From: Candidatus Omnitrophota bacterium
Lineage (GTDB): Bacteria; Omnitrophota; Omnitrophia; Omnitrophales; Aquincolibacteriaceae
DNA: 64,000 nt
Direction of reading: 5' to 3'
NCBI GenBank assembly: GCA_903884815.1
Contig: CAISGE010000021.1
Span: 448 to 64,447, forward strand
Below the pieces are notes generated by a model. The model was not told the origin of the DNA. It ran no database searches and saw only the letters and a list, made by a program, of their open reading frames with translations. Both the position numbers and the translations under genes were made by a program. Positions 18,386 through 47,900 of this stretch are shown in pieces (position 1 is the first letter of the stretch; each line of letters opens with the position of its first letter).

Positions 18386-18832
18386 ATGAGCCTGATGGAA
18401 CAGATCGAAAAGGACGTAATCGACGCGATGCGGGCCAAGGATACGGTCAAGTTGTCGACGCTCCGGATGCTTAAAAGCGCTGTTGGCAACTATTTGATAC
18501 AGGCCAAAAAGGACAAAGCGGATGACGCCGAAGTCCTGAGCCTTATTGGCAAGCAGGCAAAACAGCGCCGTGAAAGTATTGATAGCTTTGAAAAAGCGGG
18601 CTGCAAAGAACTGGCGGATAAAGAGAAGAGCGAACTTATGATCCTGGAAGCGTATCTGCCCAAGCAACTCTCCGATGAAGAACTCAAGGCGGAAGTCCAG
18701 AAGGCCATCGCTGCATCCGGTGCCACTAGTGCTGCCGACATGGGAAAGCTCATGAAGGTTCTAATGCCCGCCATTCAGGGCAAGGCCGACGGCAAGCGCA
18801 TTCAGGAAGCCATCAAATCCATCCTAAAATAG
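18386..18832 (+). CDS. yqeY: GatB/YqeY-domain protein
   Basis: 148 aa; MSLMEQIEKDVIDAMRAKDTVKLSTLRMLKSAV...LPKQLSDEELKAEVQKAIAASGA is typical of the YqeY family. RBS AAAGGAGAAA. Confidence 0.85.
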   Translation: MSLMEQIEKDVIDAMRAKDTVKLSTLRMLKSAVGNYLIQAKKDKADDAEVLSLIGKQAKQRRESIDSFEKAGCKELADKEKSELMILEAYLPKQLSDEELKAEVQKAIAASGATSAADMGKLMKVLMPAIQGKADGKRIQEAIKSILK

Positions 18833-19076
18833 CCGCCAAAGCGGCGGTCTATCAGCCTCCTGAGATTCTCTAGGCTCTCCCTATAGATTACTTTACATAA
18901 GATACATTATAGGACGTTATATTGTTTAGAAAACAGTTCTCCCCCTGTAGAGATTAGTAGACCTTCTCAGAATGAAACTCAGTCACAACTCACCCTGACA
19001 CGCTATAACAAATATTTTTATCGACCTACGCAAAAAGCCGTTACAACAAAATCAAGAATCTCATATAATAAAAAAC

Positions 19077-23900: not shown

Positions 23901-26900
23901 CCGGCCCTGTTCCTGGAGATCCATTTGCTCGGCCTGGGGCTTCAACGCTTCCGATGCGAGGAGCTCGTCTATCAGTTTCTCGGCATCCGCCTTCGCCTTA
24001 CCCAAGGTGATCGAACCGTTAGGCATCAATTGATCGCTCAAGGCATGAACGATGAGGTCGTCCGTGAGATCGTTCTGTTGCAATTGATCGGCAGTCAAAT
24101 CATCCAGCAGGACGAGATCGGCGGCGTTCGTTATATACTTTCCGAACCGGACGGCCTGAGATCCATGAAGCAGATACAGCCGGAAGAATGACCGGAATGA
24201 CGCCTTCATGATTTCCGAGCTGAAGTTATGACCCCGGGCGTAACTTTCGAGTTTCCTGTCGATCCCTTCCCAGTTATAGGTATGTCCGTGTTCCCGGTCC
24301 TGCAACTGCTCGATGATCTGGCCGAAGAAGTTAAAAACTTCCTCCATCATGATCATGCCATGTGAATCGCTCCGCGAGTACAGGTATGGGCGGGGTTGCG
24401 TGACATGCTTATATTCGTGTTGCGGCGACTGTTTCCACCAGTAATCGGCGCAATAGACCATCCCCGTTGACGTGAACCAGTTGGGACGCCCCTTGCCATC
24501 TCTCGCAATTTTGTATTCATGGGCCACCGTCGCTTCCGCACCCGTCGACTGAACCCAGTTATTCTTCATAAAGTCATAATATTCACCTATCTCCTGGACG
24601 ATATCTTCGGCAACATTAAAAACGGGCACCCCCATGTTGGTGTATCCATGCTTCGACATCCATAGGTCCATCCGCTCTTGATCCGATAGACCTGCGTCTT
24701 CCGGCAGGTTCGCCGTGGCGGGGATTGCCATGGAGGTTCCCAAACCGTCCGATTTCTCGACACGGCCCGTGGTCGGATCAAAACGGGCAACCCCGAAAAA
24801 GATCTTCCCTTCCCTCATTTTCGATTCGATGAAATCGACGAATTTAGCACGGCGAGCCGGATCGATCTGAAGCCGGTGACTCCCGTTCTCGTTATTTTCC
24901 ATCGTGAACACGTAGTATTCGGCCATCGACCGATAATCGCCCTTGGCGGTAGCTTCTCTTATAAACGCGCCGAAATCTTCGACCCCACGCAAATGCCTTG
25001 CGGTTGATAAAAGGTCCAAGGCAGAAAGTCTTTGCGCCGTATCGTTCGTGAGTACTTCCGAAGTGACAGTCCCGTCGCGGCCCATACGCTTGGCCGACAA
25101 GCCGCTTTCCGTCGCGCGTTTCAGGAATAGTTCATAGGCTTTGGCATAGGCCTTAATCTGCTCCAGCGCTTCCTGGGCCTTCTTTCCCGCAGACTTGTAT
25201 TCATTGAGCTTATCATTGGAAACCGATCGCTTCGCCTGGGTGATCGTCGCGGGAAGCAGAATCATGATCTTTTCCATGAGCGGCACAATATCCTGGAGGT
25301 CGGTCATTCGACCCGGAGTGCGATTGGCCTCAGACAGAGGATCCAGCAATTCAGAAAGTTGCTGTCTCAGCATCATGAGTTCATTGTCACCGATGTCGAT
25401 CTTCTGCAGGGACTTCAGGAAAGCCTGGATCAGCCCATAACTTGATTGCTGCAAAAGAATATCTCTTTCTTTCTCATCGAATTCGCCATCGGTTTGGATC
25501 AACCGGATAGCCGATCTTGCGAAATCGGCGCCTTGAATGAAGTGATCAAAACCGGCCAACCGGGCCGATTCCATGAGCCGGATCATCGCTTCATAACGAT
25601 CCGAAGAGCTCATAACTGCAAGCATATCCGCCCGAGCCTTCTCGTTCGCGTTTTTGAGATCCTCCGCGAAAGCTACTTTTTGGGCTTCGATAATGGCGAT
25701 CAAGGCGCTGTCTTGCACGGGATCGAGCCGGCTGATCAGATGGTTCAGCATGCTGACATCGTCGACAGGAGGATTCCCCTGATCGCGCGCTTCGATCATC
25801 TGATCCACGATCTCCATGAACCGGTCTGCCGACGGCTCCTGTTGCGACAAAGCGCTGCGATAGACCGGCAAAAGAGCCCGCGAAGCGGCAAATTCGGTCG
25901 AGTACGCCGAGATCTTAAGCCAATCGTCGAGCAGTAGTCTCTTTCCCGGATCTGGGATCTGGGCGATATTCTTAAGCTCCTCCAGAGAGAAAAATATTTC
26001 GTTCAGCCGAATCCCGGGAACACCGTTGTTTTCCACGAGCCGCGCATCGGCCAGCAACACCTTGCGTCCGTCCGGGCTCATCACAGGCGCGAAACTTTTG
26101 CCGTCCGGCTGGCGGGTATAAAGCACCGGCCCGACATCGCGCGTATGCTGGTTAATGTTATCAAAGAGGAAGACATCCTGAACTGCCCCGTCGACTATAT
26201 TGAGATCGGCAAATCCACCCTCATGGTTCGCGCCGCCGCTTGAGAGCTTCAGCACGTCTCCGTCGAAAGCGACAGAGAGTGCGGTCACGAGATCATGACG
26301 CTGGAATTCCATCGCACGACCGAATTCATCCAGAATTCCGGCCAAGACCACGCGACTTCCGTCCACCATTGCCGAAACTCCCGATCCGGCCTCAATGCGG
26401 ACCTTATCCGGGCTGAAAAACACCTTTACCCCTCGCCCTCGGTTCGTCTCGGCGATCCACTGTCCGCCGTGGAATTCAAAATTCGTAACCTGCTGACCCG
26501 AGAGATTGACAAGGGGCGCGCCGGTATGACTCACGATCTGATTTCCGTTTAGAATGAACCGCTCCTTCATTTTTATTTTCGCTTCGGCCGCCAAGGCGGA
26601 AGGGGTCAGTCCGGACGTCAGAGTCAGACCTTTCAAATTAAGGAAAAGATCTTCCGAGTTTGAGAAAACAGCACCTTGCGCCTGCAGATCCATCAGAAAT
26701 TTATCGACTTTGTTTCCATCCGTCAAACCGAGCCGGACCAGAAGTTCAGCATCCCGGAGCGATTTGAGATTAAACGCTATACCCCCGTCGAGCATGATCG
26801 AACTGGCCTGAAGATCCAGCCAAAGGTTCGCCGCCTTTGCCGCCGTCTGAAACGCGTCCGTTTGGCTCCAATCCGTGTCACGCCACAACTCGAAGATCTG

Positions 26901-29900
26901 GCTCACGCTCAACCTGTCCTCTCCCGCGAAGGCCTTCACAAAATGCAGCTGGTTTAAAAAATCACCGAGTCTCGGCCGGATCACCAAATTGATGTCCTTC
27001 AGGATATCGGCTTCGACCCGTGCAAGATTGCCCTGGACACGGGCCGCGGCAATGGCCTGCCGGTGAACTCGCATTTGATTCTGCGACGGGGCAAGTTCCG
27101 CAGCAAGGGCAAGGACCCGGCTCATCACGAGTGCGGCGGGATTGGAATACTGGCCGGAGGGACCGGAAATCCTGATCTTCTTAGTGGGATCCGCCGGGTC
27201 TGTTACCTCAAAGCCAGTACAATCCAGGAAATCAAAGAGTTCGTCCGCGCTCATACCAATTCGGGACACACCGATGATCGTCGCGGCCTGCGACACAACA
27301 TCGCGGACTTCGGTTCGCCGCTCCGTGGAGGACGTGCCCGCCCGGTCGACCCCGCTTGCCAGCACCGAAAGAGCGAGGGCCTGCCGGAGAGCGCCCTTGA
27401 AAACACCCTCGGAGAGCTGCTGATAAGAAGCAAGCGGCATCCTCCGGAGCACCTGATAGAACGCCAGGGGATCAATCACTTCACCCCACTGATCCGCTTC
27501 CGCACTACTGAATCCGGCCTTTTTAAAGACCTGCCCCGTGATCATGGATTGTTCGGACAAGGTTACAAGCTTCGAAAGCTGCTCGGGCTCCATTTGTTGC
27601 AGAGCGTCCAAAACCGTGCCGCTCAGGTTCAGATTCTTGGCAAGGACCGCGCGCCGCTTGGCCTGCTGGGCACCGCCCGGCAACGCCAGCATTTCGGACA
27701 CGATCAGATCCCAGACCTTGACAGCTCCCCCGCGCGGGAGGGCGCCACGAAGCTCCGTGATATCTTCAGTGGTTAGACCATAGCCCAGCAACTGATGATA
27801 GATAGTCAAATAGGATTTCCAATTATCGAAACCGGTATCGCCGAGAAGAGATTTCAGCCAGCTTGCCTGAGACTCAAGATGCGACTTCATCTCGTCTTCA
27901 TAATTCACGCTAAACACAACGCGCCCGGCCTGGAACCTGGCCTTCAGGAGGGAGTTGTTTGTGAGCAGTTGGCGGAGATTCGCGTCCTGAATCTTCGCAA
28001 CATCAATCTTTATCCCCGCGACATTCACAGTTCGGATTTTTGTTGTATTATCTGTCTGAACGGGCGCCTTATACTCACCATTCAGGGTCTCAAGCATCGC
28101 CCTGTCTTTGTCGGGAGTCCCCTCGGTAAGCTCCGACGCCTGCACGGTAACTTCGCTCGCCCGCCTCGATGCGTCTAGACCGGCCCGGGCACCTATCCCG
28201 CTCAATTCCGGCGCGAACTCGACGGCAAAACCCAGAGCAATAGCGATCATCGTGTCCGCCCGGGACGCCACATCGGTTTTAAAGCTGAGATTCCCGAAAA
28301 ACTCCCCTTCATACTGGCGCCGCCGCTGCGCTTGATTGATCGCCTCAAACTCAACACCCGCCCGTTCGATCACAGTACCGGCTGTCTCCACGGCCTCCTG
28401 GAGAGACCGCCTCACGGGTTCGCTTAGCTCTTTTCCGGCTCCCTTCGTGAGAAAGTTGTTAAGTTGATCTTTCGCCGTTTTCGCTCTTGAGCGGACAAGG
28501 CTGTTCACCGAATGAGGTCCGGAAACATAATCGTCGCCCCGTTCCATATCATAATCGCTGCCGTAATGGCGCATCAGTTCAATATTGAATTCACAAAGGA
28601 TCTCGCGCTCCTTGACGCCCTGGGCGCCCTGCGTAAAATTCGCCCGGAACATCGCGTCGCGCATCGGGTTGAACATGAGTGCGAAATCCATGAGCTGGCC
28701 GGTAAGGGAACGCGCTGTCGCGTCCGCCGCGTGGGCGCTGTTCAGCGCGTAGCTGAGGAGGAACTGCTCTTCCTTCGACAATTTCTCCCACTGCCCCTCA
28801 TGCACATTCCGCAGCCGGTCAAGAAGCTCGACGATGTTCTTCGGTCCGTTCTCGCCCAATTTATTCCCATACTCGTAGGCTTTTCCTGCGGGTGTATCCA
28901 TCCGCTCAAGAAAAAATTTGCGCCATCCGTCAATAGCCTTGAAATCAGAGAACACACTCATTTGGCTCTCAAGAAAATCCTGATTCTGATAGACCACAAT
29001 ATCCGCGTCATAGCGATCCTTGTCGCCAAACTTCACTTCATTGACAGGCTTAAGCGTTTCCGACAGAAAACTACTCCCCTCCTCTGTCACCCGATCCGCC
29101 GCAGACCGATCACTTGAAAGAATCTCGCTCAGTTTTCTCCCGTCCTGTCCTTTTCCCAAGGCAGTTTTGAGCGCGGCACTATAGGTCTCCCAATATTTTG
29201 AATTAATCTGATCAGCAAGATCTTGGGACGTTCCCCAGAGCCCCGATTTCCCTTCCGCGTAAGCCGAGACCATCGCTTCAAAAACCTCGTGCATGGCGAT
29301 CGTACGGCCAATACGGCCTTGGTTCTGAATCAACATAACGGAGGTGATCTCCGGCGTGAACCCGGCATAAAGCATATTTTCACGCTGATAATCGAAACCG
29401 ATCAGCGCGTGCTGGGCCGCCAAAACGATTTTCTCCTCGCTCCCCTGGTTGAACTTATCAACAGAGGGCTTGACGCTCTGCTGGCTTTCATAGGTTCCGT
29501 CGATCACAACGATCTGGTCCACCTTGATTTTCTCTTTTACCAATTCCGCTTTAACCAGGTCGATCATCGTATCCGTCGAAAAGCCCGACAGAACCGACCG
29601 CCGTCCCTCTTTAAACGCTGCGATTAGCTCTCGAGCGATAAAGTTGGCTTCCGCTTCCTGTGACTTGAAACTCGAAGGTTTCCAAGACTTGAGCTCGAAT
29701 GATTTCTTGGCTTGTCCCGGTCCGCGCGTCTTCTGAGAAAGAAGTTCATGGATATAAGCATCCGCGAACTGTCCACCCTTTCCGAAGATAACTTCCGTAT
29801 TCCGGCCGGCGATCATTTTCGCCTGCATGCTCACTTCCGCCACAGTGCCCGACATTCCGTAAGCGGCAGAAACCCCGCCAAAAAGCATAAAGATATCGGC

Positions 29901-32900
29901 CATGCTGGAAGCCGTGAGCGTATTCGTCATCTCGATGTTTTTGGCGCTCCCGCGGATCTGGGCAAGATCCAACGACTCGTAGCGGTTCGCCTTTCCGGCG
30001 GCCTTCAGGACCTGCGTCTCAGTCTTATACCCGGCCTCCTTCGACCCCTTGATGCCGAGACCGGCCAATTCATGGGCCAAACCGACATCATTGAGTTTAT
30101 AGCTGATCGTGATCAAACCGACGGTATCCGAAATGATCTGGGTATCCGCCTGCTTTCCGTCAGAACCCATGGGACGGTATTGATCCCCGACCCCTTTCCG
30201 GATCCTCCCCACGATACCCCGCTCAACCATTTCCGCGGTACGCATCGCCTGGTATTTCAAGATGGACTGGAGCTCTGAGGTGAAGATCGAAAGATCCTCA
30301 AGCTTCTCGCTCCTGTCATTCACCGGGATCGACTCGTTCTCGGCATCATAGATCTTGTTATAGCGTTCTTTTAGCGCGTCCGCTGCGCGGCCCCGCTTGA
30401 AGAACTGTCCGACTTGTGTCGAGGACTTCCGTATCTCGTACCGGGACGAATCAAAGAGAATAACCGCCCTCTGGTCGCCGTACTGCTTAAAATACTTTCC
30501 GCTCTCAGTCACAATGATGTGATCGCTCCAGCTCAGATTGGACTGATCCACGACATTATCGAAGCGGTCCATGAGAACGCCGTCCTTTTCCCAAAGCATG
30601 ATACTCTTGTCGCCCTTCATGGCCGGATCCACGAAAAGTTCGTTGTAGGCGCAGTACACATGAAAATAGCGCAGCTCGGTGGCTTTCATCGTATCGCCGC
30701 CGAGGATAAAATAAGTCGGATCCACAATGCGGTGGATCTCGTCCATATTGCGGACTGAACTTTGGAACACCTTGGAGAATTCCTGGTACTTGGCAAGCTC
30801 CGTCGACCGGAAATGCGTCATCAGATGGCCGAGGGTGGTATAACTCACGGCCAGCACCTCGCGGGCCTGATTTCCGTCTTGACTGAGAATGCTGAGCAAT
30901 CGCTGATAAGCTGCTTCGCGGCCAGACTCGGGGCCTTTGGTGATGGCTTCGATCAATTTCTCCCCATTAACCAGCTCAATGCCCAAAGCGTTGGCGAGTT
31001 TTTCAGCCGGAGACTTCTTTTGATTCGGCTCAGCAACAATACGCCCGACCGCCTGCTCACTTTCAGTGATATGGACATTCGCGCCAAAAATGAAATCAAA
31101 GGTCGCCATAAGGAAGGTCTTCCCGCCACCTACGGCTACGTTCACATTCGAGCCCAAAAGTCCTTCCAGAATGGCGCACATTTGCTCGTGCAAAAGTTTG
31201 ATGCCTCTGGCGCTGAAGACGAGCGCCGCGGTACGGAGCATCGTTTCGTGGGCCTTGAAGCCTCCCATGCTTGAGAAGAAATCCTTGAGCGAGGGCTCGG
31301 CCTTTGCGTCGCGAACGGTTTTTTCCATGAATGCGAAAATACGGGCATAGCTCTCAAATCCCCCGCCGCCTTCCGCCGCACATCGCGGCGCAAGATAACT
31401 CTCGAGGAATCGATTGAATTCCGGTTCGGAGAGTCCCACCGTCTTTGCAGATTTCTTTGCACTCCCGAAAGCGGTGTCGAGAATTCCCACTGCCGCCTGC
31501 CGGACCATGGTATCGGGGTCTAACAACTCCGAAATCAGACTGGGTTGCGCCTCATCGACGGGATAGGCCTGGTTTTTTATGTTCTTCAAAAACATGGCGT
31601 GAATAGCCGTCAGTTCGGTAACGAGGGTATCGAGGTTCGGGGCTTTATCAATCGCGTTAAACTTCTCGACGCCGTGGGTGAGTACAAAATAATACGCCGC
31701 GCTGGCAGCTCTCTCCACAGCCGCCGTCTCAATGGGAGAATTTTCAAGACTCGTCTTCCATGACCGCACCGGATCACTTGCAAGCCAGTCATTTACCGTT
31801 TGAACCCGTTGGCGCACAAAAAACTCGACAAGGACTGGATTGCTGACGCGCGGACTGGTGCCGTTCTTAAAAATCAGTTTGCCGTCACTTTCCGTCTGAA
31901 GCACCAATTTCCCATTTTCAACGACAAAAGAAACGTCGCCGCCGTAACGCCTGATCTCCGGAGCCAGGTAAAAACGCATGATCTCGAGGGCGACAGATGT
32001 CGCAAAGCTATTTTTCAAAAGGGCTTCTTTCCCCTCGAATTTTCCTTTGAGATCCAGCAACTGCTCCGCCACTTTTACCAGCGAGTCTACCTGGCTCAGC
32101 CATGGGTTATGAGCCTGGACCTTTTCAGCCTGATGGCGGAGAGCCTCGAACGCGGCGGCCTTTTCAGGATCGGCATCAATTCCCGTGACGCCCAGAGTAT
32201 TCATGAAAACCGCGATCTGGACATGTGAGTTGGTCTCGGCAAGCTTCGTGATCAAAGACTCAAGCAGCGTCCCTTTATACCCCCCGTCAAGCACCGCGTT
32301 TCCGAGCGCTCTCGCAAACGCGCCGTTCTTGTCCAACCCACTGATCACCTGAAAAAGATGATCGGCCGTTTCCACAGAAAGGATCAAAGGCGCCTTCTCC
32401 CCGTCGATCCCGAAAACAACCCTTGCGACCTGTCCTTCGGCATACTGACTCGCCGGGATATTCCGGAAAGCGTCAAAAAGCGCCTTGACCTGCTCCTTCA
32501 CCCCGATCGACGTGCGCATGTCCATGCGCCGCGCGCTTTCGCGCAGAATGGCAAAACGCCCGATAGCGTCCAGCCCTTCAAGACTCCGGCCGGAGCGCAC
32601 CGAAAAGATCCCTCCGTGAGTTTCAATGATAGATCTCAAGATCGACTCAGAGGGACTCAATTTACTGATCAAAAGGTCCAAAACATTATTCCCGTCGATC
32701 GTGACACTGTGGCCATCGAGAGTGGACAAGTCATTCAATATCGTCATGAACCGGTCGCCTTCTCCTGCACGGACAGCATCAACGTAGATAGTTAAAAGAC
32801 CCCGTGATACCGAAGCGTCGGACGAATACCGGGAGATGTTAATCCAGGAATCTAGCAATTTTCTTTTACCCGAACCAACTTCGATCGTGTCAGGATTCCT

Positions 32901-35900
32901 GAGTTCCTCCATAGTAAAGTTGTGAATTCCAAGAATGACCCCCGACCGCGTCACTCTTGCTCCCGCTGCGAGCACAAGCTGGAAGGTGCTCCCATCCGCG
33001 GCCTGGATCGACAAAAAGCCTTGGGTCTCCGTCTGACGGAAGAATTCATTCAGAAAAGCTCCAAACTCGCCGCGCGGCAGGCCGGTAAACAAAGCATCCG
33101 CGATCGCCGTCATTATGTCCGTGCTGGCTTCCAGCCGTCCCTCGAGGCCTCGGAGGGCCTCGGGCAACGTGCCGCCCATTTTTTCCGCGATGGAGACGGC
33201 GGGTTTTGCGGTCTGATTGGGTGCGGAAGGATTGGCCGCATCCTTGACGGGTACTGACTTAACCTCTTCCGGCGCCTTAAAAAGCCGCGCGCCAACCGAC
33301 GTCCGTTCACTGGCCGAAACCTTTGCGAAGGAACTGGCCATAGGACGAGTCCAGTTATCAAGCAACACAGCCTTAAACTCCCCAGTGATCACATCGAACA
33401 GGTGAGTCACTTCCGCGGGAGCAAGCTTACCGCTATAAAAGTTATTGAGCAGTTCGTCTACGGTCAGCCTGCCGCCCGCTTTATCGGAGTTGAAACTTTC
33501 GAGGCTCAGGCGGCCGGTCATAGCAGCATCGCGAACGATAAAATCCAGGCGTCCCCTATTGATACTGGAAAGTCCCGTGGATAATTGAGGCGGGCGGGCA
33601 AGATCGGCGAGGATGCCTTGGGCAACATCCAAACGCCCCTTGTTCAGAGCGCGATAAATCGTAGCTCTCGCCGTTTCTCCGAGGCCATTGACGAACGTTT
33701 GCACCTCAGGGCTCAGTATCCCGAGCCTAATATTACATCCGACCTCGAAATCAGAAAGTCGTCCCGCCGCGTCATAGCTCTGGCGGGCGAGAGGGCTCAG
33801 GCTGTCCAAAAGCCCCTGAAGTCCGTCAGGACTTGCCAAGAAATCCGGGAGGAGATTGGCGCGAACATCTATCATGCTTCCGGAGCCGGTGGACGTGCTC
33901 ATGAATTTCCAAACTGTGAAAGCTTGAAGGTCCTGAAGAACATCCTTATCCGTGATCACGCTTGTCAGAGCGCGTGGAACAACTATTGGAGGCGCACTCA
34001 TCAGGATCTTCTCCGCAACGACATGATCCCGGTTAGCCATAGCTTCGTGAAAGGCCGACCTCGCCCTGTCATTTAAAGCGGTGTAGCGCGCCTGATCACG
34101 ACGCAAAGGCTCACGAATAATATCCCGGAACGGAGACCGCAGATTGCCGGCTGCCTGAGGCACCAGGAGGATCGCGCTTCTTGAAAGAGCGCCCGCGAAC
34201 GTGCCGAGTTCGGTAAAGGCTCTTGTAAAATCCCCTGAAACCGCTACCGCGAGTACGCCGGCTAAAAATCCGGGAAGGCTCGCGAAATCTTTCAGGATGG
34301 ATTCCACATCAGAAATTCCCTGAACGTGCCCCTCCTTCTGCTGGATGACGGGGGCCTTAACCAATGTCGCGAAAGCCTGTGACGATGCCATCACCAAATT
34401 AAAAAGCAGAAGATTATCGGCATAAGCAAAACCTGAGGATGCGAAACCCGCCAGGGTTTGCTTCCAGCCTTGGGCCATATACGTTTCCGTCATTTTCGCG
34501 GCCCATCGGGTGACAGAGCCCGGCAAGAGCGCCCGGATGACCCCGTTCGTTTCTGAAAAACGTCCAAAAAGGCCCTGCGAGAAGGTCGGCGCAAAAAAAT
34601 GAAGCGCCTGCCCCAGCAGGACATCATGAAGCACACGGCTCGGCGCCCAGGCTTTTGCATCAAGGAAGTTGGTGCGAAAAACGTAAATCAAATGTCCCCA
34701 ATAGCTCCGATCCTCATCCTGGATAAAATGCATTCCAAATTGATTCATCACCACTTCAAAAAGATGTTCGACCCCGAGAGCCGCCATGGCCACAGGCAGC
34801 ATATGGAAGGTCACCACGCTCCGGCCGGCATCAATGACTAACAGCTTTAAGATGCTCGTGTTAAGACTCACGCTTTCCTGGGCAAGACGCGCTCCGAACC
34901 GGGAGGCCGCACCCAAACCAGCCACACGATCCACGAGCAGTTGTCCCTGAAGCGACAGCTCCCCGGCCGCTGTAATTCCTTGGACTGTTACCAAACGGGC
35001 CAAAAGCACTCCTTGCAGGGCTTTGAGACCCAGCGATACCATCAAGAGCGTAATGCCCGCATCCCGGATCGGTTTATTCCCCTTCAAGGCGCCATACGCC
35101 GCCATCCCGACACCGGCTCCATAGACGGCGACATTGCCAAGTCCCAGGAACACCTGCCCCCATTTAAAATAAGAGGCGGCGCCGGCCGCCGTTTTGATGG
35201 AAGAAATTCCAGCGATCTCGGAAATCGACGGCGCAAAGAACTGGACAAACCGCGCGCCGATGGCAAACCCCGCGACCAAGATCCCCATGTTTGTCAACCA
35301 AGGATTGTCGCTCCATTTGCCGGCACCAAACATCGCAACGCCGACGGTCGCCGCAATATTCATCATCCCCGCGACAACGCGGGAAGTTTTCGCGAAAAAT
35401 CCAATAGAAGAACTGATCTTGCTGAATTGGTTCACCCCCAAAGCGATGCGCCATAAAGAACCGATGGCGATAGCGGAAGCACCGATAGTGGTCAATAATT
35501 TTCCGTAGCCCACCGCCCAATCCTGATGGGCCGCCAGGCCGAACCCCCAAAGCCCGAGCCCGGTCAGAGTGGTAAGTCTGGCCATTCCCACGAAGAGGTT
35601 CGAAGTGTTGGCAGCCCAACCGGCCGCCATGCTCAGCTGCCGGAGCCGGCTAATACCCGAAACTGTGGAGAACACCGTTTTGGTCGATTTCACAAATCCT
35701 GCAGCACGGCTTGCCTGCGCAATACCTTGTGCGGTCTTCATTCCCTTGCTGATTGCATTGACGGCTTCCGCAGCGATCTTCCTGCCCCAACCTCCGAAAA
35801 GAGCGCCCAGGATAAAACCTGCCATCTCAATCGTGGTCAGGACCTTATAGGTCATATCTGTTTGATCTATAACACCGCAGTACTCCAATCCCCCCTTCAG

Positions 35901-38900
35901 GATCGTCGTGCCAATTCCTACCCACATGGCATACGCCGATACTTTCATGATAATGGCTGCGGTACTGGCACCCACTGCCGAGAGGATAGCTCCTGCAATA
36001 GCCCCCACTGCACAGACCCCCGCATAAAGGGCAATCCCAGCCATGGCAACCGCCGTGGGGGCGTTAGCTGCTGCCCAGAGCAGGGTTTGCGCGCTGTAGA
36101 GCCTGCCGAACTCCCAGAAGCTGATCTTTTCTTCCCGCGAAACTCCGGTGATAGTATTCGTATCGGTCCAGCTTCTCCAACTGTGGAAAGTCCTGACGTT
36201 ACCTAACGAAGCGCCGACCAGCTCAAGCGAGGAATTCACGCCCCAGTGACTGTACAACGTATCACTCGCTATAACTTCGTTGGCGAAGCCCTGGTAGGGA
36301 CGCCCCTCGTAAACGATCAGCCGGTTATCAAACAAGGAACCCGGATTGTCAGTCCCCTTCACGATCCCGATAAAGCCGTACTGATTGTTCATCTGATCGA
36401 CAAACAACCGGTTCGCTATGAGATTGTCCCCCGCCGCCCCGCCGCCCCAGACCGTATCGGCCGGAAGATAGTATGTGAAGGTCACGGTCTGACTGTCTTC
36501 GTGGGTATAAGCTATTCCCTTATCCGTATCATGAACAAGCTTGTCCGCAAAGCTACCGCTCTCACGATATGTGACAACATCCATGACCGTTTCGCCGCGC
36601 AAATTTTTCCGCACAACATACTCTGTACGGTCCTGATGAAATACAGCCTGAGCTGTTCCGTTCTTCGCGTAGGAGCGGGATTTGACCTCGATAAGGCGGC
36701 CATAGTCATCAAATACTGGGAGTTCCTTATAAGTCAGCGTGCACTCGAGCGAAGCTTGGCCCCGCCAAAAGAGATGTCCCAAAGTGATCGTACCATCCAG
36801 GCTTGCAGTGACGCCTTCGGAATCAACCACTTCGCACTGCGCCAGGCCGAGGCCGATCCGTTCTTTGGTAAAATACTTGCCGGTAGTATCTTCCCGCGCC
36901 ATCATGTCCAGGACAATTTTGTAACCGGCCTTTCCGTCTGTCTTGTCAAACTTGAAGTCTTTCCCGAGCTGATAATCTTTGTAATTGGAGTTCACAATGA
37001 TTCCTGCCTTATAATCCGTTATACCGTTGTCCATTTCTTTAAAAGTCATCTCGTCTTTAGAGAAATAGTTCCACTCCTTGGTGGTTTTCTGACCAACGAC
37101 CTTCTGTATCCAGTAAGTGACTCCCTCTTCAAGGTCCAAGGCATTGCAACGAAGGGATTCCACCCCCTTCCCCTTGATCTGCCCAACCATTCCTTTGAAC
37201 TGATCAACCATTCCCTTGAACCGATCCAAAGGAGTGTCTCCAAGACTTAAAAAAGCCTCGTTTCCGGCCAGCGATTTCATTTCAAAAGACGCATCTTTGC
37301 CGAACAGAGTGCCCGTCACAACCAAGTTCTTGTCGGCGGCTTTAAACTCCTGCGTAAATCCCCATTTCCAGTCAACTTTTGACACGAGGGCATTATGTCC
37401 GCTTGCGATCCAGCCCTTATTAATTTCCTCGAGCTTGTCCTCCAAAAGGAATTTGTAAGCGCTTGCTTGTTCAACATTCAGCGTTATCAACCCCTTTCCA
37501 TAACTTATCTTTTCAACGAGGATGGTTCCCTTGGCGTCAGATGTTCCGGCACCGCCGATATTCTGCCCTCCAAAAGTATAAGTTCCTGAAAAGGACATGT
37601 CCTGAAACTCACCCCAGTCTTTCCAATAAACGGTTTCCGCGAACTCCTTGAACGTACCCGCAATATTCGCGCTGACCTTACCCGGCAGAAACTTCTGGAG
37701 AAACTCACGGCCTTCCTCGGATTCGGCGCCCACATGTTGATTGAGATGTATCAATTCGATGGCACTAAGCGGTTGATCCGCAGAAGACGAATATATGATA
37801 GAAAGATCCCCTTGACCGGCTTTCCGGGAAGCATCGAGGGTGAATTCACCATTATAAAAATTAATGTGCCCGAGCCCCCCGCCGGAGGTCTGGACATCAA
37901 TCACGACTTTATTTAAGCCCTGGGCTCTCATAAAAACGTGTTCGATCTCCTTTCCGTTTTCGTCAACCCCTTTCACGCGGAAAGCCGCTATCAGGTCCGC
38001 AAAAGTCTTACTCGACTCCCAGAGTCGCACGCCATTGGCATCCCGGATCTTCCCATTGACGATCTTGAAGGTGACATTGTTGAAATTCCAGTACCCATTC
38101 CCGTTCAACTTCTCCCCCAAGATCGCGCCGAGGGTCGCGACGTAACGGGAGACACCGTTAAATTCACCCCCGACGACCTGGAGGGCAAAGTCGGTGCTAC
38201 GGATCACGCCGAGCGCTACCGCAGCCTCCGTCATGCGGTCCATAAGCTTCGCGGATTCCGCCGGATCCATGAGCGCCAGTATTTTCGAGGAATCCGAAGA
38301 AACCATCATTTTCGCCCGGGCAGGTTGCATCCACGTGGTGTTATTTTCACCGGAATAGGTCAGCCATCCTTGCTCGGAAACATTGACGCGTTCAAAGTTC
38401 CCGCCGTTGGCAAGAAATAAAAACTCGAAGCCATTGGTCATGGCGTCGATCCAAGGGTGCTGTTCATGGTTCATAATGCCAATGAAGCCCGTGAAATTGC
38501 CGTCTTTGATCTCGGCAAAACGGGTGGGATCATGCCGCACCCCGGACTGGATGATCAGTGAGGTGACCGCGTTGGAAACCATGGTCTGCATCGACTGCAT
38601 CTGGATATTCAGCTTTCTGATCGCCTCGGGTGAGGCATCAATCTTCCAATCCTCTTTCGAGGTGTTGATAAACTTGTCTAAAGCCTCGCCAAGCTTCACG
38701 GAAAAGGCGCTCCAGCCCAGAAAATCCCGTCCGCCGGAACTTGCGGATAGCCGCGTCTGGATACCAAGATCCGGAGTAAACCAATGCGTATCTCTAAGTG
38801 CACTTATCTGCTCCGTTGTAAAGACCTTCAGTAGGCTCTCACGGAACTCCGGAGTGTCATCCAGGGTCAGGGCGACGGAGAGCTTCACCGTCTTTCCGTC

Positions 38901-41900
38901 TGAGAGCATATACGCATTCCCAATGGATTTTCCATCGGGACCGGTCAAAGCCTGCGTCGCCCCTTTGAGGCCGACCGCGCCGTTGACGATTTCATAGATA
39001 GTCCCCGAGGCTTCCCGGAGACCTGAGGCGGCAATTTGCTGGCGGATATATTCCATTTGAACCGGGGAGTATTTCTCGGAAGCCGTACGAAGAGTACCGT
39101 CGGCCATGCGGATATTGACGCTATAAGAATTACGGCCAAATATCTCGATCCAGCCGCTGCCGCCGATATAACGAAGCTCCGGCGTCTCTGCTGTCGGAAC
39201 GAGAATATCGGAGGAGTCAATGAGCTTGCTTTGCAGGAAGCTCAGCATCTTCGCCGCCACGGACGGCAGAAGACCGGTTCTCGACCCGCCCCCCGCGGGC
39301 GTCTCCATCAAAGGGGTCCCTAAAAAGAAATTCGCCACGGAATTCATCGCGTTCGTCAGCCATGAAGCGATGGAGCCGCTCTCCTCCTCATGAGCGGAAG
39401 CCCCCTGGCCGCTAACAAGGTTTTTAAGATAGCCCAGCATTTTGGACGCGGCGGAGGGCTTATTGAAAACCCGGATCTCATCCCCTTTTTTCAACCAAGA
39501 GAGGCAATCCTCATTGAAATTCCAGGCGCCGATCGCGCCCGTGCGAATCCCGTTCGCGTCGATCTCATAGGCTCTCCCCGGCAGGGCGCGAACCCCCAGA
39601 AGCTGCAGGCTGTCGTAGAGATGCTGGAGACCACCTTCTATATCCTGGTCTCGCATTTCTCTCCCGTCCGCAAAAGAAACTTTGTACAGGTTGACGACCT
39701 CGATCCGTTTCCCTTCTTGAGTGTGAATGCTCGTCGTACTCTCACCGGCGTTAAAGCTGGAGAACTCTCCACTGTAACTATTGGCAGACATGACCGCCCC
39801 GGTGACGGAATTCCCGATATATTGAATGCCGCCCAAGCCTCCCAGGAAATTCTTATCAAACATGCCGGTCCATCCATTCGCGCTGCCGTTGGCCAGCATG
39901 AGGCAGAGATTCTCAGTCAACCGAAGGTTGAGAGCATTCAGACGGCCCTTATATGTGTCGATCTCGTCTTTTTGCAAAGCGCCTCCACTCAAAGCGCCGA
40001 TCAAATACGGCATATAGCGACGAAAGGTTTTCCCGCCCTGTTTGAAATCGACGATCTCCTGAGCGCCTACGTTCAGCTGCACCAGCTTCCCGTCACGAAG
40101 CCCAAAGAATTTCCCGCTATCTGCGACAAAGTCCACTTTGCCAAGGTCAAAGTTGTAATAACCGATCCCGCCGGAAAACATCCGGCTGTCTTTGTAAAAC
40201 GTAACGAGATTCGCATTCAGACGCAGGCCCAGAGCTTCGATCTCGCTCTTCAGAATATCCGTCGCATCGCCGGCCGGAAGGATATTTCCGGTCATATCCA
40301 TGATGTCATACGGGCCGTTGACCATATACATCGCCCCGTCATCCTGCAGAACAGAAAATGAGCGGTTCGGCGTGGCGGCTATGGCGTTAAAGCTTCCCGT
40401 ATTGATGTTATGGCTGAGGATCGTCAGATTGTCGGTCCCGGAGGAAGATATGCTAAGGAAGTCCTTCCCCTTCAATGAAAGAAAACGCGCCGTACCGGCG
40501 CTGAGCTTCTCCCCGGCTGTCATACGAAGGGTGGAATCCAGACCAAACGTGGTGGTTGCATAGCCTAAGAGAGCCCCGGCAAAGGGATTCGCCCGGAGAA
40601 TGTCTGTCGGGGCCGCAACTTCACCCTCGAGGGTGGCACCACCCAACAGTGAGGCAAAGATTTTGGTCAGCTCCGCTCCGGTCATAACGCTCGTAAGGGC
40701 CTTTCCGGTGATGGCGTCATAGAGGATCCTGTCTGCGGTACTTCCGTAAAAGGAAATCGCTCCGTCCTTCCTGGATTGCAGCACCCCCGCGATCCCCAAA
40801 CGGTTCAGCCCGCTGTCATAGATGAGCAGGACATTGCCGTTAGAATCTTTCCCCGCCCCTAAAGCATAGGAATCCGTAAGTCCAATAATAGCCCGCGTCA
40901 GTTGGCGGCCGCCGTCAGCCATCACATCGTTCGCGATACCGCTCGCTGCGGGCATGGTCCCAAAAACCCAATGTCCCGCTTTGTCGGAGAGCCACTGGTC
41001 GGTGTTCTTGATCGCGACGCCGTCCATTTCCGTGAAGCCGTGCATTATTAGGTTGCTCCCGAATGCGCCAAACGCCGCGTAGCCCTCTTTGGCCGCCGCA
41101 AGGGCCTGCGTAAAAGTCATATTCGTTATCAGCCGGCCGTTCGCGTCCCGGTATTGAGCAGGCGCGTTATCGCCGGGCATGCTCATCGTCCTGGACGCCT
41201 TGTCTTCCACCGCGTCCTGGGAGATCATGATCCCGAATTTCGCGATGTAGGTTTCCGTGCGGGTCCGGTCGCCCGCCCTCCCTCCCGATACAATCTTGAA
41301 GAAATCAAAAGTGTCCTTGCCACGCGCGGAGCCGATAACGCGCGCGACGATCTTATCGCCTTCAATTCCGCCCTGGATAAGGCCGGTTGCGTCGAAAATA
41401 GCCTGGTTCAGCCGTCCGGACAGAGGGCCCATATTTAACCCGTCGAGCATCGCGTACGCGCTCACGCCCTGACGCTGGAGCGCTCCGGACGCGTTGAGCA
41501 CCGTCAGATAAATCTTTCCTCCGGCGGAATATTCTTCCTTGATGAGAAGAACAGATCCGCCGCGATTGCCGGCATAGACCTTGTTGTCGAGCCAATAGAC
41601 GACATTCCCCGTTTTTTTGTCCGGCTCAAAGGCCTGGGCGTAAACCGAGCCGTCCTTGTTGATAAGCGCAAAGTTGATCATGCTCTTCGCAATGCCGTCC
41701 AGAGCCCACTTGGAGAGTCCGTTCGTCCCGGTAGCCGAAATGATCGTGTTCGAATAGACGCCGCGGCTGACACCGTCATGGGCGAGGATATTCACCGCCT
41801 TCCCGTCAATAAGCGTCGGGGTCCGGTAATCGGCATTATTAATATGGCTCACGACAACCCCGTAAGCGCCGTAGCCGCCGCCATTCGCCGTGGGTATCGA

Positions 41901-44900
41901 CGAGACTCCCCAGCCGATAACAAAAGCCTCTACGCCGGCTCTATTCAAAGTGACCATGCGCATCGAATTTTTCGAATCGGCTTCAGTGGCATGAGGGATC
42001 AGCTTTTCAAGGATATTTTTAAAAGCCGTGGCGCCTGACGCCGTCGAAAGATCCATCCGGGCTCCCTCCAGAACAGCCTTTTTAATGAAGGCGAATGTGG
42101 CCTTCAGACTGCCCCAGCTTCCGTTCTCCGAAACCGCCTGACCGCCGAGATGCTGGATGGTCAGACTTTCGGTGAGGATCCTTCCGTCCTTCTTCAGAAT
42201 GCTCAGGAAAAGAGAACGTTCAGCGGTGAAGAAGCTTGCATCGAGCACTCCGTAGCGCCGCAGCGATTCCGCCGCGAGGATCTCCATGCCCGATACCGTG
42301 AGAAGGTCCAGGGTACGGGCCTTGGCACGCAGAGCCTCCAATTTCGAGCCCTCGAGTCCTATCAGATGCGCCGTCCCGTTCCGGTCAAAGATCCAGTTGT
42401 CGGTCTGCTTGATCCTGACGGTGTTGATGGATTTGACGCCCCAGCCAATCAGCCTGGCCCCGGAATAGTCCGAGGCGACAAATCCGGTTCGCGCCATTTT
42501 CAGGAGAGCAGCCCAGGAGGGGCCAAAAATCTTGTTCCCGGCGATGTCTATCATGTAGACCTGCCCGGTCTTCACATCGCGGTAGATCGTCGATCCGTTC
42601 TGGAAGATCTTCTCGGTGTTCAGTTTCCAAGTGTAAGTGTCGGTCAGCGAGTATTCGGCGGCACCGTGGCCGTCCAAGATCGATTTGGTGAGCAACAGGT
42701 TATCACCGCGAGCACTAATGACGCGGCCGGCGCTGTTACGGAGCAAGGTCAATGAACCCGAAGACCGGAGTGTCATGTGATTGCGATCGTCCCTGTATTC
42801 TTGCTGCAGCCGGGCATACCGCGACAAGAGCCCCGTGGACGGATCCCGCTGGGAGAAGGTTGTCGTCATGGACTCATAGCCTCTCCGGGAAAAGATCTCC
42901 GTCAGTGCCGTGCCTCCGGAGGAAAGACCGGCCATGCTCGCGCTGAAGCTGAGGTCGCCCGACTGATTATAAAACCCGACCGTCGTCGCCGTGGTGACCG
43001 TGTCACCGGTCCGTGTGCTCGAGGCCGCAGCGGGGGTTTTGGATCCGCCCGTGATGGTCGAACCCGCCTGGCCCGTGCCGTGCTTGTCGATCGGCTTTTT
43101 GTCCTCATTCACTTTTTGCGAGGCCTTCATCATCGGGACGAAAACATCGTTTCGTAATTGATGGTTCCGGTCCTGCGTCAGATAAAAATCATAATAACGG
43201 TAAGTAAGATATTTTGTGACCAGCCCCGAATCGCTCTGATACGTGTCTAAAATTCTAGCGCATTCTGCTTTGAAGGCATTTGCGGCATCTTTTTCTGCTT
43301 TTTGCATCGCATTCCACGCCGTTTTATCGCTCCCAAAACCTCCGGCCGCGGCATACGCGATATGATAGACCTGTTCCGCCACCTGATACGCGGATTGATA
43401 TGTCGCCTGGGCCGCAAGCCCGTAAAAATTGGCACGTAGCATCAAAAGATTGTTATCGAGACCGCTGACCAGGTAATAGTCCTTGGCGTCTGTCAAAGCG
43501 GTCGTGAGTTCACTGGTGCGGGTGGTGGCCAAACCGACCAAAGTGCTGAGGATCGCCCCTGCATCGGAGGTGAGATGCTTAAGCGCAGCCTCAACGTTGG
43601 CAGCCCAGGTGTTATCCTTCGATGTGATGTCTGTTTGACCACCATTTGTCCTGTCTCTCCCATGAGGGCCATCAATATAAAAACATCCCATATCGCTGCC
43701 ACTCCCATAAATGGGTTGGAACAGATCTCCTGCCTGGCCGCCCCAACCGGAATAACCGGCCAGAGAACCGTAGAGATTGATCGCATTGTTCAACGCGGCG
43801 GCCTTTCTGAGAAGGATGGCCGTCTTGAACCCCTGGGCGGCAATATCCGCGGAACAACCATCCTCTGTCGTCTTACACAAAGCGTCATTCACGGCGTCGA
43901 GGGCACCGAAGTAAGCCGAGCGTACCGATTCGACCCTCCCCATAATATCGTCGACATTCGCGACCCAAACGCCTCTGGCGGCATCTCTCACTGTCTTCTG
44001 GGTGCGATCGCCGACCCACTCATTCGACTCCATTGCCACCTTAAGGGCGATCACTATCCCGCTGTTGACCCGGAGAGCGCTGTCCGCTTTCACAAGATCC
44101 AGAAACTTCCCGCGGATGCCTGCATAGTCGGCTGTCAGTGTCTCCAGATACCCCCCGGTTCCCGTGACCAGAGCAGCCCCATCCGTGATCGATTTAGAAT
44201 TGTCTCCATAGTATGCGGTGGGAGAATTCGCTTTATAGAGAGTGGAATCGAGCAAGGGATACTGCTGTAAAACCGTTTCCGTAAAACGCGTGACACGCTC
44301 CACAGCATACCCGGTCACCATATCTTCCAGGCCGTTCGCGGAACCGACGATCTGGAGCGTCACCCCGTCACTTGTCCGGACAAATCCCCCTTGGCTGAAT
44401 GCCCGCGTGAGTGAATCGCCATCGACGGATGCGTCCTGCAATGCGTCCGTGACTGATCCCTGATAGTTCTGTTGGGCAGCACGCAAGGAGGTTTGATAAG
44501 ATGCGGCGTCACCGCCAAGAGAGTTCAGATTGGTCGCAAGATCCGTGGTATTTCCTTCTCGGATGCTTGTAATCGTGTCTTTCGCAAGATCCTCCTCGTG
44601 AGTATCCTTGTCTATGCTTCCTTCGGCCTCACCACTCCCTTTAAATAACGCCTTAGTCTGATCCACAACCGTCTTCATATAGCCGATGGTGGCGCTGTAT
44701 AAACCGGCGGCGGCTGTTGAAGTCGTGTTAATGCGGCTAAGTGCTTTATCAATGAAATCGGTCGCTCCATCAACAACTGTGGAGTCCCATTTGAGATTCC
44801 CGGACTGATCAAACTCCGGCGGGATGGGCAGCCGGATATTGACGTCATTCATCGTAAAGAAAAGGGCGTCCCGGGACGCGTAGCGGAAAAGGCCGCAATC

Positions 44901-47900
44901 CCCGGTCAAGTTGTTGTTAAATGGCGCATAAGCGTCGTTAAGATCCGAAGTTAATTGATCAACATTAGTCTGGATCCACTGGTTGAATTTCTGGGTGGCA
45001 TCCTTGTACGCAGCGTTCAGCGCCGTGAGGGCAGCTGACGGATCGCTCGCGACATCACGCTTATAATCCGCGGCAGCTTTTTTGATGGCCCCGATAAACT
45101 CGTTTTTCTTTCCGGTAATACCCGTTTTGAAAGTGTCAGTTGCTGTCGTGACATCCCCCAAAGACGGGTCGCCGTCGGGAGCCCCGGCCAATTCGCTTTC
45201 ATAAGTGCGGGCAATCTGGGCGGCGAGATCAAAATACGAATCGGGGACCTGTCCCATCCGTGATCCCATGCGGTTCTTCAGGAAATCACTAACATTTGCC
45301 GCTGTGATATTATGGGTCGTGACATCGACGATCGTCTCAAAGAGGATATCGCGCATCGTGTAAATGCCGGTTCTGCTTGTTGACGCGGGGGGCTGAATAA
45401 TCATACTTGCCGTAAGTTGCCCTGCCTGCGCGGCATTGGCTTGCGCAGTTGCCGCCGTGGGATCAGTCGTCGCATAAACCCTGCTACTCATGAGCGCCCT
45501 CATGCCGGGAAGGCTTTCGTTAAGTTGGCGCAAGTCCGCAAGAGGCAGCGTGCTGTTGGCTACGTTCCAGTAGGAATTTTGATTGGCTGGCACTTCGGTA
45601 TTTGTCTTGTCGTAACAATTCGGACCATTATTCCCGGTGCATGCGGGAAGACCCTGGGTGTTATCCAGTGTGTTCGTCAGAGCTCCGAGGGCTGCGCCGT
45701 TGTATTCGAGACTGACCGGAAGGCCATTGCCGTCCAGGACGACCGCAAAAGCGGGCGGTTGTCTCGCCCCAGCGAGTGCCGCCGGGGGCATGCGCTCGAT
45801 CCCGACCACCCTTGTACCGTTGGCGCGTTCGACAAAGAGAAGCTTGATGCGTTCGGCTTTGGCTTCGTCAAACTCCGAACCGATAAAGAACTGTTGTTTT
45901 TCGAAGGTTTGGGGATCGTTATAGTCGCCGAACGTGGTCACGATCTTATCCCGGAGCAAGCCCGCGGTCGGAGCCCAGGTATCTCCGAGAAAATTCGCCT
46001 GGTAGTTTATGGTCTCGGTTGATTGGGTAACATTCCCCAGCGCGTTACGCGCATCAATGGTGATCTGCCGGTCATAAAGCTCCATCGGCGAGGACACAAG
46101 GATCTTGGACCCGAGAAAGGACGACAAGTTCACCTTCTTGACGCGCTGGCTGATGACCTCTCCATATTGGCTGTAAAAGCTGCCGGTGCGATCTTCAAAA
46201 TACCCATCCCCCGTGCTCTTATGGTAAAGCGTGCGCTGCTCGCTCACGACGGGAGTTCCTGATTCGAACGATTCGTCACCCATCGCCAGGCGGTAGGTGA
46301 AAAAGCTGTTGGAAGTGAAGTCCGCACCGCTGGCGTCTGTCCCCGTACGCGAGAGTGCCATCAAAGTCCCGTAGCCGTTCTGCGCGAGATGTTTTTGGAC
46401 AAATTCATTGTCGAAGAGATCCCAAGAGACCATCGATTTGATGGCGTGGGTCTTATCATTGGGATCGGGCTCATACGCAACGTTATAGCCCGGGATCGTG
46501 ATATTCGACGTGTCCTGACTTGGCGTCAGGAAATAGCGGGTAATTTCCTCGACTCCCGCAGCCCCTGACGGAGTATAAGTTTCGACGGTCTTTTCGATAA
46601 ACCCGTGAGCATCCGTGGTGTAAACGTACTCGCGTTGGCCGACAGAGGCATTCCTGCTGTCGTCGTCTCTTGTCCCACCGCGGAAGAGCGTAACCCGGTT
46701 GTACTCGTCGTACTCTTCATAAGTCGCGTAATAGCCGTCATTAACGGTCGTGTACGTACAGGTCGACCCGGAACATTTCAAATCGGTGTTTTTCTGCATC
46801 TCAGTCCCCGAATTAGTCGGGTCATCAACGGTATAAACCGTGTTGTCGGCTGCCACTAATGTTTTCGGAGACGATGTATATCCTTCCGACTGGGTGCGCG
46901 TCCGTCCCGTAAGTTTTCCGTCAGTATAATCATTGTCATAAAGGGAGAAAACACCTTCGAAATCAGTCTCCGCGCGGATCGTGTTAAAATAAGGGTCGAA
47001 CCAGACTTCTCGCGTGTCCGAGAGCCCCTGGTTCTCGCGCGATTCGCTGACCTCCGTGTAGTGAACAAGACGGCCCCGCCCGTCCAGAGAATCAGCGTCA
47101 TACTCATAGCGGAAGGCGTTACCGCGCGCGTCGACATACCGCGTTTTGAATCCCGTCTTCACATCCAGAAAGAGCTGGGTGGTGAATTCCTTGCTGTCAA
47201 TCACCTGGGTATCGCTGTAGCCATTGACCAGGAAGGAGCCGTATTCAAAGGAGTTCGTCCGCGTAAAAACATTCCCCCAAACATCCAGGTACCCGGTGAC
47301 ATTGCCAAAACGGTCGAAATAGAAGGTTCTCGGGAGATTCGCCTGGGGTTTTCCGGGAGCCCCGGGCGTTTGGTCCAAAGTCTGCTCGGATTTCAGGAAA
47401 CCGCCTTCGAATAATTGAGTGATCGTGGATAAATTTCCGAAATTATCGATCGTTTGATTTTTGATGCCCACGGAATTAAACTTGGTGATGGTAATGTTCT
47501 CATTAACAGTAGATTCTTCGCTGGACACGACAGACAACTGCTTGACCGTCAGATCGTCCTGGAGACCATTCGCTTTCAGCGTGCGGACGTATTCCGTGTG
47601 GTTCCCGTAGCGGTCCATCGTTTTTGTTTCCATGCCGATCTTGTCATATTGAGTCTCGGTACAACTGACGCTTGCGGAAAGCGTGAAGCAATTCCCGGCC
47701 ATGGGCAAAGCAGCCAACTGCGCCGCAGTCAGGTAGGGCGATAACTTCGAGGTCATCGTCAGATCCATCTCAGTCGTTTTCGTGAGAAGTCCTTTCGAAA
47801 GCACATACTCAAACTTGCTGAGTTGAGTCCTGAGAACTTTCAGCCCGGCTTTGGCCGTTTCGGCATCATCTCCTTTCGTAAAGATTTTGTTTCCCGTGGA

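Follow-up and report, generated by a model that had tools for sequence, protein, structure and literature searches.

How a single protein comes to hold, in the middle of its chain, a long run of hydrophobic stretches rich in glycine and alanine, and what such a run is for, is the question raised by a giant open reading frame (ORF) in a 64,000-nucleotide (nt) stretch of contig CAISGE010000021.1 from a Candidatus Omnitrophota bacterium (assembly GCA_903884815.1, positions 448 to 64,447); this whole stretch is called the window below. A first-pass annotation, made from the letters alone, had marked nt 34380-36120 on the reverse strand, corresponding to amino acids (aa) 7657-8237 of the giant ORF, and had offered two explanations: either the protein is anchored in or threaded through a membrane with large domains on both sides, or the block is a translocation segment of the kind used by large toxins to pass C-terminal cargo across a target membrane. 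We consider it likely, as predicted from its sequence, that the block sits within the membrane as part of a giant surface protein of Omnitrophota. The giant protein would join the known membrane-anchored giants of this phylum, as one of a rare lineage that carries an undescribed conserved domain next to the predicted anchor. Omnitrophota giants are among the longest known proteins.

The hydrophobic block

Transmembrane (TM)-grade segments were called on the Kyte-Doolittle (KD), Hessa and Goldman-Engelman-Steitz (GES) hydrophobicity scales, using 19-residue KD windows with a cut of 1.4, a strict cut of KD >= 1.6 or a Hessa sum <= 4 kcal, and a TopPred-style scan (our own implementation, with the GES scale and a trapezoid window). 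The three scales concur that the block region is exceptional within the giant protein. Of the 17 windows with KD >= 1.4 in the whole protein, ten are crowded into the 4.6% of the chain that the first-pass annotation had marked (binomial P = 6e-10), the strict cut gives 8 segments within aa 7685-8031, and the TopPred-style scan of aa 7667-8315 gives 13 “certain” and 2 “putative” segments, in agreement with the at least 12 hydrophobic stretches counted in the first-pass annotation. Strict-level segments outside the block were found only at aa 15-41, at aa 9733 and as a C-terminal pair at aa 12225 and 12284. The block runs ~85 aa beyond the end originally given for it, to aa ~8320 (nt 34131).

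Alanine (15.7%) and glycine (12.0%) are frequent in the block and charged residues (D+E+K+R, 11.4%) are scarce, compared to 9.8%, 8.9% and 21% respectively for the whole protein. The Gly/Ala-richness that had been remarked upon is thus real (28% vs 19% overall), but the packing motifs thought to accompany it are not enriched: shuffling of the block residues ruled this out, with 72 small-xxx-small motifs observed against 69 ± 5 in shuffles and 6 GxxxG motifs against 8.2 ± 2.5. Hydrophobic moments over the block peaks are low (0.01-0.3) and so the helices are neither amphipathic nor coiled-coil. The AT skew within the gene peaks in the bin 34001-36000 (0.142), which fits with U-centred hydrophobic codons on the coding strand.

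Stretches of this kind might instead belong to a soluble, Gly/Ala-rich helical domain in whose interior they are buried, or they might be an artefact of low complexity. All of the Hessa sums in the block are positive, and an equally hydrophobic window at aa 9733 lies clearly within the soluble core of an ATPase, where it is a buried strand. Furthermore, shuffled versions of the region still yield 7.4 ± 1.4 hydrophobic windows compared to 9 observed, so that the signal comes mainly from composition and not from residue order. However, ~650 aa with 11% charged residues and 13 “certain” GES segments lie far outside the other ~12,000 residues of the protein, the charges that there are fall mostly in loops, and hydrophobic segments are clustered at this position in homologs of very different sequence as well. 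The block is non-repetitive, with no match inside it in a tandem-repeat scan, contrary to the low-complexity artefact that had been raised as a possibility, and the reading frame is confirmed by protein homologs. We regard a soluble or artefactual origin of the block as very improbable.

Relatives and the two parts of the block

When 1.84 billion representative proteins were searched exhaustively with phmmer, only six relatives of the giant protein emerged. P0001 (7,157 aa) is 43% identical to it and collinear with it from aa 7039 to the end; P0002 (5,729 aa) and P0003 (6,046 aa) are more distant, having the distal block and several downstream modules in common with it but not the N-terminal part, and P0004-P0006 are fragments. 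Each of P0001-P0003 has a hydrophobic cluster of its own, equivalent in position to the block and followed by the same conserved domain and then by the same downstream modules, while their N-terminal parts are non-homologous; upstream of aa ~7040 the giant protein is not conserved in the homologs (phmmer domains). Conservation in the family is strongest in the downstream part, with 56-64% identity to P0001. The entries for P0001 and P0002 both understate the true gene length, as P0002 ends where its contig does and the frame containing P0001 stays open past the 20.8 kb of stored sequence. At one metagenome locus (Ga0114951_10000631, L084) an open frame of at least 580 aa lies upstream of the annotated start of P0001, and at another (Ga0210019_1000994, L085) the homolog ORF runs off the contig start. 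Further searches yielded little: a word-index search found nothing with the block or with the ATPase alignment and only P0005 with the conserved-domain alignment, a genome scan with the block gave no match, and a metagenome scan with the conserved-domain alignment recovered only the P0001 and P0002 loci.

Comparison with these relatives divides the block in two. Its first part (aa 7667-8036) is poorly conserved: identity to P0001 is 35%, and 98 of the 386 columns in the alignment contain gaps, among them insertions and deletions of whole helices. The second part (aa 8085-8320), which holds 3-5 further hydrophobic helices and is present as a single copy within the window, is 50% identical to P0001 and 26-28% identical to the other five sequences of the alignment (A1). 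Across the seven sequences 17 of its residues are invariant (A8088, F8095, P8099, A8103, R8152, H8155, D8156, G8160, Q8161, H8164, G8176, S8179, G8183, D8225, N8226, F8230 and N8231), giving the motifs R-x2-HD-x3-GQ-x2-H and DN-x3-FN, and LVPQ (aa 8309-8312) is found in 5 of the 7, which are all those that extend that far. AlphaFold2 (AF2) modelled aa 7925-8345 as an all-helical bundle with a predicted local distance difference test (pLDDT) score of 68 and a predicted template modelling (pTM) score of 0.67.

The block has no Pfam, NCBIfam or PDB-sequence match in any of the seven family members and the conserved domain has no Foldseek-PDB match. An HD-phosphohydrolase, considered on account of the invariant HD, was rejected as no member has a Pfam HD match at E <= 1 and there is no fold match. 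A domain with the motifs given above is not mentioned in the available portions of West-Roberts et al. 2023 (bioRxiv 10.1101/2023.11.21.568195) or Nielsen & Lui 2026 (bioRxiv 10.64898/2026.06.07.730766). From its sequence conservation it looks like an undescribed membrane-proximal domain with more than a spacer role.

Proposed anchoring and orientation of the giant protein

The DnaK encoded in the window (8387-10330, forward strand) is 86-93% identical to DnaK of ~20 Candidatus Omnitrophota metagenome-assembled genomes, compared to at most 68% for other phyla, and thus the window comes from an Omnitrophota bacterium. The giant protein, predicted as one chain from its gene, is read from the ORF list and translation as a frame without a stop codon and longer than the 10,000 aa taken as the lower limit for a giant. 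As had been noted at the outset, its N-terminus resembles a signal peptide: a basic n-region (DKKSW) precedes the segment LSLFVIFTFLL...VFA/FG (translation), which would be either a signal peptide, with cleavage presumed, or a signal anchor. From here to aa 7656 there are no hydrophobic windows and the sequence is rich in Thr, Tyr and Asn. The composition switches at the block (T 10.0%, Y 4.8%, L 7.4% and E 4.1% before it; T 5.0%, Y 2.4%, L 10.0% and E 6.8% after it), the C-terminal part (aa 8321-12696, ~4,400 aa) being Leu/Glu-rich and Thr-poor, and the last block helix is followed by an Arg-rich flank, NLRSPFRDIIREPLRRDQAR.

The C-terminal part contains an ATPase with the motifs AVGGGKTF (Walker A, aa 9319), MDEIH (9449), YGMSGT (9744) and QNQGRIGRT (9922). 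In other members of the alignment of this module (A3), and not in the window protein, the homologous stretch matches Pfam DEAD (3e-7), ResIII (2 members) and Helicase_C (2 members), and NCBIfam gave weak cas3 and hsdR matches; as judged by these motifs and matches, the module is of superfamily 2 (SF2) type only. YGMSGT (29835-29861, aa 9744-9752) is aligned in A3 with GMTGTA in P0003 and GMSGTA in P0002, and we take these motifs (GMSGT and GMTGTA as motif III) and the stretch DEIH...P(T/L)YFI(L/V)GG to resemble motifs of SecA.

These features favour the first of the two original explanations, that of a protein anchored or threaded in the membrane with large domains on both sides: a signal-like N-terminus, then ~7,600 aa free of TM segments, then a cluster of non-amphipathic helices and then an ATPase-containing C-terminus. 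The N-terminal segment would start Sec-dependent export of the variable ~7,600-aa ectodomain, and the ~12-15 Gly/Ala-rich helices of aa 7667-8315 would then halt transfer and integrate into the producer's own cytoplasmic membrane, leaving the conserved ~4,400-aa C-terminal part with its SF2 ATPase, M42/M20-like segment and two HExxH motifs in the cytoplasm. The first ~370 aa of the block may thus act as a tolerant multi-helix anchor, in which helices are gained and lost between relatives and small residues permit tight helix packing, and the last ~235 aa, with their invariant polar residues, may make up a conserved helical domain that lies within the membrane or against it and probably connects the anchor to the cytoplasmic machinery. 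We infer this N-out/C-in orientation from four features: the N-terminus resembles a signal, the composition switches at the block, the last helix is followed by Arg-rich sequence, and an SF2 ATPase needs cytoplasmic ATP, which would place the C-terminal part in the cytoplasm. The insertion route and the role of the conserved domain are likewise proposals.

Several results weigh against this reading. On the Hessa scale most of the segments are of marginal hydrophobicity (simple sums of +0.7 to +4 kcal), several of them carrying one internal K, R or E, and an AF2 model of the whole block, although all-helical, is of low confidence (pLDDT 45). Positive-inside counts (our own KD and GES versions) disagree between thresholds and between homologs, and the TopPred-style optimum for the giant protein puts the N-terminal flank of the block inside; as the counts contradict each other, helix parity and orientation are not fixed by them. 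A SecA-type identity of the ATPase, as described for related proteins, was not reproduced: Pfam, NCBIfam and PDB-sequence searches gave no SecA_DEAD match.

The invariance of the conserved domain raises the alternative that this domain, perhaps with the preceding 3-4 helices, is an active membrane module (a channel, an ion-coupled transducer or an intramembrane enzyme) coupled to the SF2 ATPase, for example for export, threading or processing of the ectodomain or of another substrate. Overall identity of the seven sequences is only 26-46%, yet the 17 residues do not vary among them and include polar residues inside hydrophobic helices (R8152, H8155, D8156, Q8161, H8164, D8225, N8226 and N8231), the domain is better kept than the anchor relative to P0001, its place after the TM cluster and before the part with the ATPase is constant, and its predicted bundle is compact and of moderate confidence; participation of ATPase domains next to TM regions in export has also been speculated upon in the literature. 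However, it has no similarity to SecY, YidC, transporters or intramembrane proteases in Pfam, NCBIfam, PDB-sequence or Foldseek searches, invariance among only seven aligned sequences is of limited weight, and the domain and the ATPase are ~1,000 residues apart. A C-terminal motor also cannot drive co-translational export because it is synthesised after the ectodomain. We therefore hold an active module to be unlikely, although if it were true the giant protein would be a self-contained trans-membrane machine and not a passively anchored adhesin, with a domain specific to a rare giant-protein lineage coupling a cytoplasmic ATPase to an ectodomain.

The second original explanation, in which the block inserts into the membrane of a target cell and passes the C-terminal ATPase and peptidase modules across, perhaps from an RHS-like shell, gains some appeal from the predatory or parasitic lifestyle suggested for Omnitrophota such as Velamenicoccus, with giant proteins proposed to act on prey cells. 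Marginally hydrophobic, Gly/Ala-rich helices are also found in some pore-forming hairpins. Known T domains (diphtheria T, colicin) are water-soluble when folded, their one or two hydrophobic hairpins being covered by amphipathic helices. The 12-15 consecutive low-moment hydrophobic helices of the block are unlike this, being too many and non-amphipathic, and the comparison with toxin translocation domains that had been suggested gave no match of the block to a family or structure by Pfam, NCBIfam, PDB sequence or Foldseek. Within the family the supposed cargo of ~4,400 aa is conserved best and it is the N-terminal part that varies, which is the reverse of polymorphic toxins.

The RHS-like shell fared no better. 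The sole Pfam signal of the ectodomain is an RHS_repeat match at aa 1529-1561 (E = 0.0025, 18.6 bits vs a cut-off of 22), ~6,100 aa upstream of the block, and the few YD-like motifs in the N-terminal part are scattered over ~aa 1084-2004, at least about 5,600 aa from it (motif counts), so that there is no array near the block. A YD-like motif does adjoin the block (FWEFGRLY, aa 7658-7665), but FDDYGRLIEV, which had been placed with it, lies at aa 7460, 200 residues upstream. DPxGL and PAAR motifs are absent from the whole giant protein (the regular expression DP.G[LWFIM] gave no match), and no same-strand downstream gene is available for immunity, the neighbour being a convergent TPR gene. A single VENN at aa 11019 was judged a chance match, as P0001 has no VENN at the corresponding stretch on inspection. 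A toxin-style delivery function for the block is thus not supported and we think it most unlikely.

With the toxin/RHS annotation removed as unsupported, the current picture of Omnitrophota giants is unchanged. On the anchor reading the giant protein would have three parts, of which the exported one is variable, the multi-helix anchor evolves fast and the engine in the cytoplasm is conserved, and the conserved domain could serve as a sequence marker for the lineage and as a target for mutagenesis.

Further features and known systems

Table 1. Positions of features of the giant protein and of neighbouring genes in the window.
Feature	Position in protein	Window (nt)	Strand	Basis or remark
Giant ORF	12,696 aa	21000..59090	-	GTG start, uninterrupted frame
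N-terminal hydrophobic segment	aa 15-41	58968..59048	-	hydrophobicity scans
Predicted exported ectodomain	aa 42-7656	36123..58967	-	composition, hydrophobicity scans, phmmer domains
Tandem repeat, 219 bp x2.8, 87% match	~aa 2660-2860	50501-51117	-	tandem-repeat scan
Variable Gly/Ala-rich poly-TM part	aa 7667-8036	34983..36092	-	~9-10 TM-grade helices
Conserved membrane-proximal helical domain	aa 8085-8320 (~235 aa)	34131..34838	-	alignments
SF2 helicase-type ATPase module	aa ~9300-9960	29211..31193	-	motifs and alignment A3
HExxH motif HEYKH	aa 11558	24405..24419	-	motif scan
M42/M20-like aminopeptidase-like segment	aa 11905-12034	22989..23378	-	sub-threshold Pfam
Hydrophobic segment pair	aa 12225-12243 and 12284-12302	22185..22418	-	hydrophobicity scans
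HExxH motif HELRH, C-terminal	aa 12467	21678..21692	-	motif scan
Another very large ORF, open at the start of the window	at least 2,691 aa	1-8077	+	Pfam, hydrophobicity
MoxR-type AAA ATPase		12317-13306	+	Pfam bpMoxR and AAA_3 on identical product
VWA+TPR protein		16171-18276	+	domain matches
TPR protein, convergent with giant gene		19077-20879	+	domain matches

Further modules of the giant protein are less clearly marked (Table 1). The 219-bp tandem repeat of the ectodomain encodes near-identical 73-aa units (MRQVTVGNFTYVISNYTSAFSDSVPVSGKKIEYTIQEKDSTYSNVGVTTTNETWMKVTTGLTSSF...) followed by more diverged copies, and looks from its sequence like a recent repeat expansion. Downstream of the ATPase, the M42/M20-like segment matches Peptidase_M42 just below threshold (E = 6.8e-5, 22.5 bits vs a cut-off of 23.2), with weak PDB-sequence matches to peptidase T and tripeptidase. 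The two HExxH motifs suggest zincin-like metallopeptidase modules, and no Pfam model detects the modules around them. By eye and without alignment, the first has counterparts in similar context in P0002 (HEELH) and P0003 (HEEGH) and the C-terminal one in P0001 (HEAIH), P0002 (HELVH) and P0003 (HESYH). The C-terminal pair of hydrophobic segments (VLPFLIPLSGLFAPIALLA and TGPVGAAISIGIFLVFDVF) lies in a Pro/Ala/Ser-rich stretch, and the region aa ~12161-12540 aligns poorly to P0001 (23% identity, 178 gap columns); the pair may be a lineage-specific second membrane hairpin.

Of the neighbouring genes, the large ORF at the window start encodes another large multi-TM protein of this genome, with 11 TM-grade segments that include duplicated hairpins (IVWALPxPxML ... 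ALLIAPFI) and with a Pfam match to inositol monophosphatase (E = 1.3e-10). Contigs of several ENA metagenomes carry the identical DnaK sequence, flanked there by the same genes. The region from dnaK to the 3' end of the giant gene (12317-20879) contains several ORFs on the plus strand, and three of these have informative matches; we take their combination of MoxR, VWA/TPR and TPR proteins to recall a Bat/MoxR aerotolerance-type operon.

When set against known systems, the giant protein resembles diphtheria T, colicin, TcdA/TcdB and TcA in having a helical hydrophobic region between a large N-terminal part and C-terminal enzymatic modules, but it differs from such translocation domains in its many more, non-amphipathic hydrophobic helices and in a conserved, ATP-dependent “cargo” of ~4,400 aa. 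With Rhs/YD-repeat toxins it shares a few YD-like motifs and one weak RHS_repeat match (West-Roberts et al. note beta-helix filaments that resemble Rhs structures), but not a repeat array next to the block, DPxGL, PAAR, a variable C-terminal toxin or an immunity gene.

As a functional analogy only, a DEAD-like ATPase coupled to a polytopic membrane module recalls SecA-SecYEG, but in the giant protein the two are on a single chain, ~1,000 aa apart, and no profile or sequence scan gave a SecA_DEAD, SecA preprotein-binding or SecY match. Staphylococcus aureus Ebh is a giant Gram-positive adhesin with a single TM helix and a short cytoplasmic tail. The giant protein would be like Ebh in that a hydrophobic region towards the C-terminus tethers a very long, signal-led ectodomain to the cytoplasmic membrane of the producer, and unlike it in the ~12-15 helices and the ~4,400-aa cytoplasmic part with enzymatic modules; the two have no sequence relationship. 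A matrix-binding protein of ~10,000 aa is mentioned for S. aureus in PMC11573180.

The nearest parallels are within the phylum. Multiple TM helices with large extracellular domains have been noted there (PMC10066038, Seymour et al.), a membrane-anchored layout is reported for Omnitrophota giant proteins by West-Roberts et al. 2023, a class with signal peptide and TM segments (SP+TM) makes up 39% of 916 giant proteins in Nielsen & Lui, and signal peptides, transmembrane clusters and helicase-like ATPases are found combined. A Pfam scan of the 12,696 aa at E <= 0.01 gave no dockerin, TSP3, HEAT or C39 domain, and on the definition of West-Roberts et al. 2023 the protein falls outside the Dockerin-type class. 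In our scans its ATPase also differs from those of the known giants in matching generic SF2 families and not SecA_DEAD, most, though not all, of the members described by West-Roberts et al. having a divergent SecA_DEAD/SecA preprotein-binding domain next to TM regions. The SP+TM class is defined in its source by a signal peptide and internal alpha-helical TM segments called with DeepTMHMM; on the hydrophobicity scales the giant protein has the aa 15-41 segment and 8-15 internal segments. Like the known giants it has very few Pfam matches and poor conservation, and it shares its phylum and a length of over 10,000 aa with the giants that West-Roberts et al. describe as Dockerin-type and Archaeovorin and with those that Nielsen & Lui class as SP+TM. 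Its predicted layout also matches theirs: an N-terminal signal, a long TM-free part, a TM cluster towards the C-terminal third, and then, on the intracellular side, peptidase-like modules and an ATPase of DEAD/helicase type.

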